This document shows positions 486 through 13,981 of a DNA stretch of 23,199 bases, piece after piece; within the stretch, counting starts at the first letter, position 1; every line of letters begins with the position of its first letter. Where the stretch lies: positions 1 to 23,199 of the forward strand of contig JAEORO010000038.1 of NCBI GenBank assembly GCA_016840855.1. The letters run 5' to 3'. Made by a program: the position numbers and the translations under genes. The notes under the pieces were generated by a model. That model was not told the origin of the DNA and did no database searches. It saw only the letters and a program-made list of their open reading frames with translations. The DNA is from Candidatus Thorarchaeota archaeon (GTDB lineage Archaea > Asgardarchaeota > Thorarchaeia > Thorarchaeales > Thorarchaeaceae).

Positions 486-1277
486 CTAGCTTTGTTTCAT
501 AATAGTGATGTACTTGGATAATCGTGGGTCATCTTTAATCAGATTGAGGAAATTACTACTTGAATGCGCAGAAATTTCTTCAACAGACGTTTTTCGAAGC
601 TCAGCAATTCTTTCCACAACCATCTGTAATGCCTTTAGTGGCATTCTCCTAGGAGGTTTATTTGGACCATCGGTTTCTAGCAGGAAAAGATCATCAGGAA
701 TCATAGTAACTATCTCAAGGCGTTCCTTCCAACCAGGTATTTCTTGCTCATATGATTTCAAATAGCTGCCATCAAAGGCAAAGTATAGATCTGTGTCAAT
801 GATTTTCTCAACTAGACTAATTGGACCATAGTAGTCATGAATGATTCCATTTCGGAGTGAGTAATTCTCTAGCAAATCAAGGGTTTCGCTCTCAGCTCCT
901 GCTACATGAAGAATTACAATAGTGCCCTGTTTCTGTGCAGATTCAAGAAATTTCTCGAGAAGGGATACCTGCAAAGGAAAGTATGAGGCATCTGCTGTCC
1001 ACTTCCGGTCAAGTCCAATCTCACCAAGCATTAATGCCTCATCAGCAGTTCTCTTTATTGTGTCAAGCTGGTCCATATGTTCGTGTGCATATATTGGGTG
1101 CACTCCGAAAGCAGGAAGAATGAGTTCTGAACGTCTTGCTAGTTCTAATGTATCATTATAGGAGGGGATATCGGTGGACACTGACACCATGAGTACTCCG
1201 TTTTCATGTATGTCTTTTAACGCTCGATCAGTGTCCTCCTGATAGTATGAGAAGTGATTATGAACATCTACTAGCAT
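486..1277 (-). CDS. tatD: TatD family metal-dependent hydrolase/DNase
   Basis: Motifs DxHxH (VDVHNH), GVHP, GEIGLD, ILH, IIH and LETDGP in TIM-barrel order. GAGGT SD upstream. Confidence 0.93.
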   Translation of the reverse strand: MLVDVHNHFSYYQEDTDRALKDIHENGVLMVSVSTDIPSYNDTLELARRSELILPAFGVHPIYAHEHMDQLDTIKRTADEALMLGEIGLDRKWTADASYFPLQVSLLEKFLESAQKQGTIVILHVAGAESETLDLLENYSLRNGIIHDYYGPISLVEKIIDTDLYFAFDGSYLKSYEQEIPGWKERLEIVTMIPDDLFLLETDGPNKPPRRMPLKALQMVVERIAELRKTSVEEISAHSSSNFLNLIKDDPRLSKYITIMKQS

Positions 1278-1354
1278 TCCAGCAACCTCAGGTATAGATG
1301 TAGATGCAGGCTATTTCGAATATCATTATTCTTGTCAGCGCATAGAATTAGGGT

Positions 1355-1438
1355 GATGGAAGGGCGGGGATTAGCCCCGCCTCTTACAGCGGTGAAAGAT
1401 TTCAATTCCGCATCTTGCAGTTGTCGGTGGCTTCCATC
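1355..1438. ncRNA. Candidate structured RNA (three-way junction), family not recognised
   Basis: GC-rich island in an AT-rich spacer. It has an 8-bp closing stem GATGGAAG (1355-1362)/CTTCCATC (1431-1438), a 7-bp hairpin GGCGGGG-ATTAG-CCCCGCC (1363-1381) and a second arm GCGG-TGAA..TTCA-att-CCGC. A minus-strand TATA lies ~24 nt from one end, and a plus-strand T6 run lies just after it. Confidence 0.55.
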
Positions 1439-1460: not shown

Positions 1461-1468
1461 AATATAAA
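1461..1468 (-). promoter_or_regulatory. Putative TATA box for the structured element/tatD transcript
   Basis: Minus strand TTTATATT. Typical archaeal spacing puts the start at ~1438-1440, the boundary of the closing stem. Confidence 0.5.
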
Positions 1469-1489
1469 GTAATGATGAACGAATTATTA

Positions 1490-1563
1490 GGACGAATCAT
1501 ATAGTAAGATTCTCCGCACAACTATATCATAGATTCATCCAAAAGCCATAGATGATTCATCCA
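1490..1563. repeat. Three copies of a GATTCATCC motif (putative operator array)
   Basis: GATTCATCCA occurs at 1532-1541 and 1554-1563 (22 bp period). An inverted copy GGACGAATCAT at 1490-1500 has a reverse complement matching ATGATTCATCC at 10/11. Confidence 0.6.
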
Positions 1564-11539: not shown

Positions 11540-13981
11540 TTATATTTCTTCTATTAATTCGAGACCACCATGTTTGTAGAAGGTAGTCTTCAACACGTCA
11601 GTGATTAAGAACCACACTAGAGCATAGCCCCACACGAAAAGCGCAAGACCCCAGCCCATTGCGGGAAGTAAGAAACCATATACTGTGATTAATGTGGCAA
11701 CCAATTGTGTGCCTAAAATTGCAGAAATCAGTGGCAGTGCAGGTTTCACTGACCAGAATGGACCCCGTGTTCGGGCAACAAGAAGCGTTAGGTGCCCAGC
11801 AACGGAGAGCTTGAGATAGATGAATGACTGAAGAACTTCACGACTTAGGTGAAAGATTACATCTCCAATCACAAAGATTCCAAAAGATGCAACTACACCA
11901 ATGATTCCAAGATAGGTCGCCATGCCTAGGAGCATCTTTGAGTTCCATCTCTCTGGAGCTTTGGAATACTTTACATTATCATAGGCGATGGTAATTATTG
12001 GTAAGTCATTAAGCAGCGCAAGTAATACAATCATAATAGGAGTGACTGGATAAAATTGGAATACAAGTATTGATGCTGCGATGAAAAGAATTACCCTTAT
12101 AGATTCAGCGATGCGATAGATCGAATAGTTACTCATCCGCTGGAAGATTTTCCTACTGTTCTTTATCGCGTCGACGATTACTGAAATGCCCACTCCTGTA
12201 AGGACAATATCAGCGGCCGATTTGGCAACATCGGTTGAGCCTTCTACAGCTATTCCCACATCTGCTTTCCTGAGAGCTGGGGCATCATTGACACCATCTC
12301 CGGTCATTCCAACAATGTGATTCTTTTGCTGAAGGAGGGATACAATCCTATACTTGTGTTCCGGAAAGACCTGTGCAAATCCATCCACGGATTCTACGAT
12401 AGGTTCAGCCTTCTCATCGGGGACATTTTCGAAGTCCTTTGGTAAAGCCATATTTTGTCCCAGACTGACTCTACTTGCAATCTCCTTCCCAATTGCTTCA
12501 TGGTCACCAGTAACCATCTTGACGTTAATCCCCATTCTTTGTGCACTTGCAATGGTTTCAGCAGAGTCATCACGAGGTGGGTCGAAGAGCGCTAATAGAC
12601 CAACAAACTGCCAAGTACCTGATGAATCGGTCTTTGCGACACCCAGGGAGCGATAACCTCTCTTAGCAAAAGACAGTACGTCCTTGTTGATTTGTTCACA
12701 GACACTTTTTGGCTCCTCTGAAAGACCTGAAATTACCTGTGGAGCTCCTTTTGACACCTTGAATCGAGTGCCACCAGAGGACTCGAATAGACCTTCAGTA
12801 CGTTTGGATACAGGGTCGAATGGTTTGAACTCAAGTCGGTCTTCCTCCGAGATGATTTCAAGATTAGGAACAGAGTCAGCACGATGAATTATTGCATCAT
12901 CAATGGCATCGTTGTTTCCTCTTTTGGATGCCATGGTCCCAAAACGTAGAACATCATTCTCTGTGAAGTCTCCATAAGGTCTAATTTCACCTACACTTAG
13001 CTTGTTCTGGGTTATCGTTCCAGTCTTATCTGTACAAAGAATATCTACTCCTGCCATCTCTTCGATAGCTGCGAGTTTGCTAACAATCGCGCCTTTCTTG
13101 GCAAGAGCCACAGCGCCAACAGCCATTGTCACAGAGAGAACTGCTGGTAGAGCCACGGGGATTGCGGCCACTGTTAGAACAAGAACGAATCTAATATTCT
13201 CTAGAATATCGTATCCTCGTATAATTCCTGCTGTAAGAACAACAGCTGCTAGAGTGATAGCTAAAGCAATTAGGTAATTGCCAATCTTCATAATGATTTT
13301 TTCAAAATGACTTTTCGTTACTGCTTCTTCAACAAGCTTGGCGGTTTTACCATAGTAAGTATTCATACCAGTGTTAATTACGAGACCTTCCATCTCGCCC
13401 ATTTGAACGGGGGATCCTTGAAAGGAAATATCACCAATTTTTTTGTCTACTGGCAAGGATTCGCCAGTAAGGGCTGACTGATCTACTGATAGGTAGTTCC
13501 CTGAAATTAGCTTTAGATCAGCTGGAGTTACATCTCCGGGACGCACCCGTACGATATCTCCAGGGACAACCTCTCTAGCAGGAAGTTGCTTCCAGTCGCC
13601 ATCACGTAGAACACGAGCTGTAGGTGATAGTCGTTGTTTGAGTTTCTCAATCGCATTGTCCGCTTTGTTCTCCTGATAGAAACCAACAATTCCGTTCATT
13701 ACTAACATTAGAGTTATTATCCAAAAATCTGGCCAATGTTGAACAATTGCTGAGAGAATCATAGCTGCTTCTATCATAAAGGGTATTGGTCCCCAGAAGT
13801 ATCGTAGGAATTTCAATATCGGGTTTACTTTTTTCTCTATGAGTTCATTAGGACCATATTTTTTGAATCTTAATTGTGTTTCTTCAGAGGAAAGTCCAGC
13901 AGGATTAGAATTCAGTGCATTGTACAACTCATCAATGGTTAAGTCTTCAGATTCTTTGGTTGTCAAAATGTTGGTACTCAT
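11540..13981 (-). CDS. P-type ATPase, P3A plasma-membrane H+-efflux type
   Basis: TGES, PVALPAV (TM4), DKTGTIT, KGAPQ, DPPRDD, FAQVFPEHK, GDGVND and TM6 ALLND carrying the proton-acceptor Asp. No long C-terminal autoinhibitory tail. Confidence 0.93.
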   Translation of the reverse strand: MSTNILTTKESEDLTIDELYNALNSNPAGLSSEETQLRFKKYGPNELIEKKVNPILKFLRYFWGPIPFMIEAAMILSAIVQHWPDFWIITLMLVMNGIVGFYQENKADNAIEKLKQRLSPTARVLRDGDWKQLPAREVVPGDIVRVRPGDVTPADLKLISGNYLSVDQSALTGESLPVDKKIGDISFQGSPVQMGEMEGLVINTGMNTYYGKTAKLVEEAVTKSHFEKIIMKIGNYLIALAITLAAVVLTAGIIRGYDILENIRFVLVLTVAAIPVALPAVLSVTMAVGAVALAKKGAIVSKLAAIEEMAGVDILCTDKTGTITQNKLSVGEIRPYGDFTENDVLRFGTMASKRGNNDAIDDAIIHRADSVPNLEIISEEDRLEFKPFDPVSKRTEGLFESSGGTRFKVSKGAPQVISGLSEEPKSVCEQINKDVLSFAKRGYRSLGVAKTDSSGTWQFVGLLALFDPPRDDSAETIASAQRMGINVKMVTGDHEAIGKEIASRVSLGQNMALPKDFENVPDEKAEPIVESVDGFAQVFPEHKYRIVSLLQQKNHIVGMTGDGVNDAPALRKADVGIAVEGSTDVAKSAADIVLTGVGISVIVDAIKNSRKIFQRMSNYSIYRIAESIRVILFIAASILVFQFYPVTPIMIVLLALLNDLPIITIAYDNVKYSKAPERWNSKMLLGMATYLGIIGVVASFGIFVIGDVIFHLSREVLQSFIYLKLSVAGHLTLLVARTRGPFWSVKPALPLISAILGTQLVATLITVYGFLLPAMGWGLALFVWGYALVWFLITDVLKTTFYKHGGLELIEEI

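Follow-up and report, generated by a model that had tools for sequence, protein, structure and literature searches.

A predicted small structured RNA gene upstream of the 16S rRNA gene in one family of Thorarchaeota

The locus described here raises the question of what is encoded by a compact, G+C-rich stretch on the minus strand between a 16S rRNA gene and its upstream neighbours, and whether it works as a tRNA mimic, as a leader of the adjacent tatD gene or as a free RNA. The DNA analysed (hereafter the window; 23,199 nt) comes from a contig of a Candidatus Thorarchaeota archaeon. To our knowledge, very few non-coding RNAs beyond the universal ones are known from Asgard archaea, none of which is easy to grow. 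An earlier note, made from the sequence of the window, had described an unannotated three-way-junction RNA at this place and had offered both the stand-alone tRNA-mimic and the tatD-leader interpretation.

The segment 1438-1352 (minus strand) is a predicted gene for a previously undescribed small structured RNA, approximately 87 nt long in the window and 59-98 nt long among relatives (Table 1). It forms an island of G+C content (0.556 at 1350-1439, compared with 0.28-0.45 in the surroundings), and its minimum free energy fold is a three-way junction of -32.3 kcal/mol (z = -2.87; 3 of 200 shuffles as stable), although fold energy alone gives modest support and the weight lies on conservation. 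The 8-bp terminal stem directly abutting a 7-bp GC hairpin, the second arm and the ACC that had been noted earlier were exact both in coordinates and in description. The hairpin P3 in the window consists of GGCGGGG (1381-1375) perfectly paired with CCCCGCC (1369-1363) around a loop at 1374-1370, and it abuts the 3′ strand of P1 with 0 nt between them, such that P1 is modelled as stacked on P3 via a continuous 3′ strand. The P3 loop varies from 4 to 9 nt across the family.

Table 1 Predicted features of the RNA gene and its promoter, in window coordinates
Feature	Position	Strand	Remarks
Promoter	1462..1483	(-)	Upstream motif TTCGTTCAT, 5-nt spacer, then CTTTATAT; unique in the window
TATA box TTTATATT	1468-1461	(-)	22 nt ahead of the first G of P1
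P1 5′ strand GAUGGAAG	1431..1438	(-)	Near-invariant; probable 5′ end of the RNA
J1/2, 18-nt junction strand	1413..1430	(-)	Conserved core ACCGAC..CUGC (alignments)
P2, variable hairpin arm	1388..1412	(-)	5 of 5 modelled pairs change on both sides
J2/3, short 6-nt junction strand	1382..1387	(-)	Alignment and column-pair scan
P3 hairpin, GGCGGGG / CCCCGCC	1363..1381	(-)	100% of cells pair; 4 of 6 modelled pairs change on both sides
P1 3′ strand CUUCCAUC	1355..1362	(-)	Perfect 8-bp pairing with 1438-1431
Tail ACC (1354-1352) and pyrimidine-rich run	1341..1354	(-)	Probable termination or 3′-end region

The distribution of the element was followed by BLAST and by covariance models. A 201-nt query matched 21 of 41 genomes, all within the genus, and in distant members of the genus the similarity was restricted to query positions 63-149, which correspond to window 1438-1352. 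A first covariance model (R1), built from 20 sequences of the genus, found one copy in the window's own genome and matches in 19 of 26 other genomes of the family, and none in 124 genomes from other families of the phylum. A second model (R2), built from 30 sequences of 12 genera, detected exactly one copy each in 69 of the 86 family genomes, representing 14 of 16 genera; outside the family, in the 124 genomes of the phylum, it gave a single noise match (E 0.36). When a sequence pattern was searched against a public genome collection, 70 matches were obtained, the 50 that score at least 61.9 bits all carrying archaeal labels (Thorarchaeota, Promethearchaeota, one Hermodarchaeota, or unclassified archaeon) and the remaining 20 carrying bacterial labels and scoring 26 bits or less. 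True hits made up 39 of the 62 pattern matches in metagenomes. Judged from these searches, the RNA gene appears to be specific to one family of Thorarchaeota. It is not indispensable there, as genus g17 yielded weak, syntenic and structurally different matches (E 0.011 and 0.1), neither of them included in the 69 of 86, and genus g20 yielded no match in its one genome (best E 1.5 with filters off). The two g17 matches (L193:3672-3782 and L194:3581-3696) are longer than usual at 111-116 nt, carry a compensatory A-U to G-C change in P1, have a P3 that does not abut P1 and have lost AUCACC; they may be diverged or decaying copies.

Conservation of the structure extends across the family. Among 68 distinct family sequences, 96.8% of cells pair (shuffles, 90.6%; sliding of the partners, 44-64%), and 10 of the 19 pairs change on both sides, a number reached in 0 of 500 shuffles; these counts overstate the independent events, since the family members are related. 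In P1, four of the eight pairs never vary, three vary by wobble only and one changes on both sides, and every change in the 5′ strand preserves pairing (G.U wobbles and one U-A swap). The junction strands are likewise conserved: CUGC of J1/2 is near-invariant and CCGA mostly kept across 14 genera, and J2/3 holds a conserved GA in the family consensus (UGA-A), which reads GUAAGA in the window. The tail, aligned in 94 distinct sequences, has a purine in 90, C in 88, C in 83 and a pyrimidine in 93 at its four successive positions, and the 10 nt that follow have a mean T fraction of 0.57. P1, P3, the junction strands and the R-C-C tail are constrained in sequence beyond pairing, with P1, P3 and the tail close to invariant. 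P2 covaries freely and is dispensable, a 59-nt form lacking it being found in one genus (L040, L092). The G.U wobbles in P1 and P2 fit the minus strand only and would be mismatches on the opposite strand, which identifies the RNA as the minus strand.

A promoter motif, TTCGTTCAT-N5-CTTTATAW, is located 22-25 nt before P1 in the window and in other genera, and a TATA-like box lies 15-40 nt ahead of P1 in 29 of 69 family loci. The box in the window agrees with the initiation at the stem boundary that the earlier note had predicted, and the proposal of a stand-alone structured RNA gains from this predicted archaeal promoter of its own and from the lack of any matching Rfam family. In 14 further loci the TTCGTTCAT motif is found approximately 600 nt upstream, before an inserted open reading frame (ORF) of 177-207 aa. 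This ORF stops no more than 12 nt ahead of the element, or 3 nt inside it, in 9 of 29 flanked loci, none of which has a TATA box near the element. Its protein shows 46% identity between two genera and has a hydrophobic N-terminus, and the ORF is accordingly regarded as a real gene for a putative small secreted protein; the protein had no Pfam match (E up to 0.01), its best NCBIfam match (E 0.055) lay far below the family cut-off, and the ORF is absent from the window's own genome by tblastn. Examples are L022:899-1495 and L028:944-1504, in addition to seven other loci. Promoter and RNA are kept where the ORF is absent, which indicates that the RNA is selected independently of it, and one conserved promoter would appear to serve either the RNA directly or an ORF whose stop codon falls 3-8 nt ahead of P1. 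Transcription would then begin at or just before P1 from the conserved BRE/TATA promoter, or, in ORF-bearing relatives, the RNA would be released from the 3′ UTR of the secreted-protein gene transcribed from the same promoter; in both cases the RNA would end within the pyrimidine/U run that follows R-C-C. The words (G)AATCAT / TTCGTTCAT recur immediately 5′ of the TATA box (window 1470-1500, minus strand) and are conserved between genera; they may be a candidate regulator binding site, perhaps for the winged-helix protein encoded two genes away.

The reading favoured here, to which a probability of roughly 0.5 is assigned, is that of a stable RNA with paired ends that binds protein in trans. 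Closure of its two ends in P1 would let the RNA accumulate as a stable species, and it would act in trans as a protein-binding RNA, and not as a tRNA, riboswitch or leader. Recognition would rely on a surface made up of the P1-P3 helix with its invariant sequence, the strands of the junction and the unpaired R-C-C-pyrimidine tail.

The genomic setting bears directly on the alternatives. The first 100 nt of the window are the 5′-terminal part of an archaeal 16S rRNA gene (100-1, minus strand), and in every locus with a 16S gene in reach the single-copy RNA gene is syntenic with it, lying 0.4-3.3 kb upstream of the stand-alone 16S gene and in the same orientation. The 16S gene has a separate, conserved promoter at window 442-425 (minus strand), downstream of the element, which places the element outside the pre-16S transcript; membership in that transcript was rejected on this ground and because the intervening genes are often antisense. 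The 16S promoter itself, CTTGGAAAG.TTTTTATT, is strongly conserved in at least four genera and is followed, over the roughly 330 nt up to the start of 16S, by a long leader, likewise conserved in at least four genera, that contains a C-box-like GAUGAUGG...GUGAUUUCCAG stretch. No 23S gene was found in approximately 3.7 kb or more downstream of 16S in L041, L043 and L044, and the L042 contig ends at the 16S 3′ end; the rRNA genes appear to be unlinked in the relatives L041-L044. Upstream of the RNA gene and divergent from it are a DUF7521-like membrane protein gene, a winged-helix gene and a tRNA, and no gene for an RNA-binding protein was found among the neighbouring genes.

On the downstream side the neighbour varies. 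In the window it is tatD, as the earlier note had it: the ORF at 486-1277 (minus strand) matches Pfam TatD_DNase (E 9e-43), starts 75 nt downstream of the RNA and is preceded by a GAGGT box resembling the Shine-Dalgarno sequence that had been reported for it. Across the family, a tatD-like gene follows the element in 4 of 29 loci only, which excludes a tatD leader as its role in general, and no constant position in the 5′ UTR of a regulated gene, as a riboswitch or leader would have, was found. In 17 of the 29 flanked loci the downstream gene is instead convergent, its end lying no more than about 15 nt from the RNA; it encodes a protein of approximately 497 aa, and two of these genes checked by Pfam are M1 peptidases with HEAT repeats.

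These convergent gene ends, together with the ends of co-directional genes at the 5′ edge of the element in 9 of 29 loci, also fit a cis-acting terminator or insulator that would separate convergent genes ahead of the 16S promoter and have no function as a free RNA, and the two G+C-rich helices followed by a pyrimidine/U run have the corresponding appearance. However, such a role leaves unexplained the invariant junction sequences, the strand-specific wobbles and the dedicated promoter kept in the absence of the ORF, and archaeal termination relies on oligo-U and not on hairpins. A pure terminator is for these reasons considered very unlikely. Still, the element may be terminator-like with added constraints, or J1/2 may be a base-pairing seed.

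The base-pairing version, a trans-acting small RNA with ACCGAC..CUGC of J1/2 as the seed for one or more mRNAs or for rRNA, is held to be distinctly unlikely, if slightly less so than the terminator. J1/2 is the longest conserved unpaired stretch, and the architecture as a whole resembles that of bacterial small RNAs derived from 3′ UTRs, which have stable stem-loops and a U-rich 3′ end. Against this, duplexes of J1/2 with the pre-16S RNA of three genomes reached -22 to -23 kcal/mol, with shuffled means of -20.6 to -25.6, and the best sites differed between genomes; a guide or antisense RNA to pre-16S was rejected, its duplexes being no better than those of shuffles. Genome-wide searches for complements of J1/2 and of the 3′ strand of P3-P1 gave nothing beyond chance, the single exact 13-nt complement in the window's genome lying on a contig without evident link, and several positions of J1/2 differ from genus to genus, no target that co-varies with them having been identified.

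In favour of the proposed likeness to tRNA, the closing pair of P1 is G-C in 68 of 68 distinct sequences, and the tail reads purine-C-C in 81 of 94, in the manner of a discriminator nucleotide plus CC. The element lacks a D arm and an anticodon arm, its P1 of 8 bp and P3 of 6-7 bp depart from the tRNA geometry of a 7-bp acceptor and a 5-bp T stem with a 7-nt T-loop, and the variable length and unconserved sequence of the P3 loop mean that there is no T-loop, leaving the mimic interpretation weakly supported. ARAGORN, one of the checks that had been suggested, predicted no tRNA among the 69 homologues at its default thresholds, whether or not introns were allowed; with the threshold set at 80% it made 22 calls, which were inconsistent, falling into 14 named isotypes plus undetermined and on both strands. 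Asgard tRNA genes are reported to be often heavily interrupted (bioRxiv 10.64898/2026.10.13.758758), which would favour an interrupted tRNA gene here. This was nevertheless rejected: ARAGORN was negative, Rfam gave no tRNA match at E up to 10, and a tRNA could not be accommodated in the 59-nt form. The interrupted tRNA gene and the leader or riboswitch of tatD, the latter favoured by the adjacent tatD gene with its GAGGT box in the window, are taken as one alternative that is already contradicted by synteny and the model searches and that is regarded as extremely improbable.

A weaker relation to tRNA would be a processing module, in which the P1-P3 minihelix is cut by RNase P at its 5′ side and by tRNA 3′-end enzymes, the RNA being excised from the upstream mRNA and defining the 3′ end of that mRNA. 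Known tRNA-like minihelices and 3′-end elements include RNase P minihelix substrates and mascRNA-type elements, and the resemblance lies in the terminal helix stacked on a second hairpin via a continuous 3′ strand, in the G-C closing pair followed by purine-C-C and, in some species, in the position directly after a coding region. At the nine loci where the conserved ORF abuts the element and a nearby TATA box is lacking, cleavage is required to generate a 5′ end at P1. Position -1 is U in 58 of 94 sequences, and the genome contains an archaeal RNase P RNA and, at 2602-2678 of the window, a tRNA-Ala gene that encodes its CCA. The element differs from such minihelices, however, in a stack of 14-15 bp instead of 12 and in the absence of a T-loop or elbow, of D and anticodon arms and of an encoded CCA, the fourth tail nucleotide being A in 1 of 94. 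In addition, tRNA models are blind to it, and cleavage is unneeded at the 29 of 69 loci where a promoter sets the start at P1. Processing by tRNA enzymes is for these reasons judged unlikely to be what defines the element, although somewhat less so than pairing through J1/2. In four relatives (L027, L031, L033 and L040) the tRNA at the place of this tRNA-Ala gene has an Rfam match approximately 104 nt long, suggestive of an intron of approximately 30 nt.

The favoured reading of an end-paired, protein-binding RNA was also compared with known classes. Rfam 15 was searched with 19 whole loci at the gathering threshold and with 20 others at E up to 5, and no family reached the gathering threshold in the window or in the homologous loci, in answer to the Rfam check that had been proposed earlier. 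PhotoRC-I (RF01716), a cyanobacterial and cyanophage motif, scored 14.7-16.6 bits on the P3 hairpin plus CUUCC in three matches (window, L081 and L083) among 21 sources, far below its gathering score of 45; it was judged a chance match of a G+C hairpin, and the weak SNORD and miRNA matches were likewise set aside as noise. A 5S rRNA was rejected, as the 5S gene was found elsewhere in all five genomes checked, that of the window included. Y RNAs are end-paired small RNAs that bind a protein partner, Ro60 (TROVE), and they share with the element a length of about 90 nt, paired ends in a sequence-conserved stem, a variable interior and a U-rich 3′ tail. They differ from it in that the element lacks the bulged-C helix, has no Rfam Y RNA match and occurs in a genome without Ro60/TROVE: PF05731 had no match in the window's genome (92% complete) and did hit control genomes, so that a Y RNA was rejected.

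Archaeal guide RNAs were rejected as well. For an H/ACA sRNA, the tail reads ACA in 1 of 94 sequences and the 3′ side of the pocket would be the covarying P3, 0 nt before P1. For a C/D box sRNA, the 5′ AUGAUGG resembles a C box, but its GA is Watson-Crick paired in P1, and no CUGA was found in the 3′ part of the alignment. Some features recall a K-turn or k-junction, the kind of site bound by L7Ae, namely the conserved GA in J1/2 (CCGA) and in J2/3 (UGA) and the coaxial arrangement of P1 with P3; the bulge would be 5-6 nt, compared with 3 nt and adjoining tandem sheared G.A pairs by definition, and is followed by no regular non-canonical helix. Coding was rejected for the overlapping 56-aa ORF with a TTG start (1271-1441), which had no Pfam match, and the indels among homologues are not multiples of three. 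No prior description of the RNA was found in the literature searched, and the available parts of bioRxiv 10.64898/2026.10.13.758758 and PMC12918454 do not mention it.

The remaining comparison is with the 16S rRNA gene beside which the RNA gene is kept. The 16S genes of the family end in ...GGAUGGAUCACCUCC, and the ends of the RNA read GAUGGA...AUCACCU. Approximately half of the family's 16S genes, and many spare 16S tails, have an additional hairpin of approximately 31 nt placed precisely at the boundary of GGAUGGA and UCACC (UCACCUCC), immediately ahead of the anti-Shine-Dalgarno tail; the 8 bp at its base are identical to P1 (GAUGGAAG / CUUCCAUC). A diagnostic 17-mer occurs at 39 places in 23 of 86 genomes, with up to five per genome and a patchy distribution within genera. 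The insertion was seen in L041, L106, L107, L110, L113, L118 and L258-L287, which are 16S 3′ ends and spare tails of relatives. It was considered as a bulge-helix-bulge intron, but by eye the splice points would fall inside a regular helix, and it is treated as a probable expansion.

The RNA element and the 16S 3′ region of the family, its optional hairpin and the spare tails included, share an identical 8-bp helix followed by A and a C-rich tail, and they lie near one another. They differ in that the element has no helix 45, CCUCC or trailer and has an interior of approximately 65 nt (J1/2, P2, J2/3 and P3) that is unrelated; in addition, the RNA gene is single-copy whereas the spare 16S tails are multi-copy. 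The possibility that the element is such a spare tail was rejected, as it has neither helix 45 nor the anti-Shine-Dalgarno tail nor the trailer and shares only the P1 helix and AUCACC.

The RNA could alternatively be a mimic of the 16S 3′ end that presents the same basal helix and tail and so binds, titrates or delivers a factor, candidates being the D-site endonuclease Nob1, the KH protein Pno1/Dim2 or another late 30S factor. This is consistent with the matching ends, with the P1-identical base of the 16S insertion, with the synteny in all loci examined and with the constraint on P1 and tail in sequence and not in pairing alone. On the other hand, the similarity is short (6 + 7 nt, with 3 nt dictated by the pairing of P1) and was noticed post hoc, no CCUCC core of the anti-Shine-Dalgarno sequence is present in the tail, P3 is unlike helix 45, the divergent g17 form has no AUCACC, and BLAST with the 16S 3′ end plus trailer matched many spare tails and missed the element. 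The likeness could also reflect common origin without shared function. Mimicry of this kind is seen as unlikely, though less so than a tRNA-like processing module. Its more specific form, a free-standing mimic of the small-subunit rRNA 3′ end kept beside 16S and bound by a late 30S maturation or 3′-tail factor of the Nob1 or Pno1/Dim2 class, is a shade more doubtful than the general one. If this specific form were true, the RNA would be an RNA-level regulator or chaperone of 16S 3′-end maturation in the archaeal lineage closest to eukaryotes.

The locus defines a new RNA family with an alignment of 94 distinct sequences, a covariance model, a predicted promoter and predicted ends, and a clear structural core. 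Members of it can be sought in metatranscriptomes and studied in vitro, and the analysis corrects the interpretations as tRNA mimic and as tatD leader. Two features would lift the family beyond an orphan, namely the conservation of two helices in sequence and not in pairing alone, and the likeness of the termini to the base of a lineage-specific 16S 3′-end hairpin; if the latter likeness is functional, it would connect a small RNA with late maturation of the small subunit.

Further short insertions were observed in the 16S 3′ domain of relatives, in L041 and L102 (after GTCGTAAC) and in L043 (in the helix-45 loop); one is approximately 28-30 nt long and another, of approximately 110 nt, holds three similar small hairpins, and they could be mini-introns or expansions. 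In the window's own assembly (G000), where the true 16S 3′ end was not found, contig C230 carries at approximately 12866-12990 a degenerate spare copy that comprises helix 45, the tail and the trailer of 16S.
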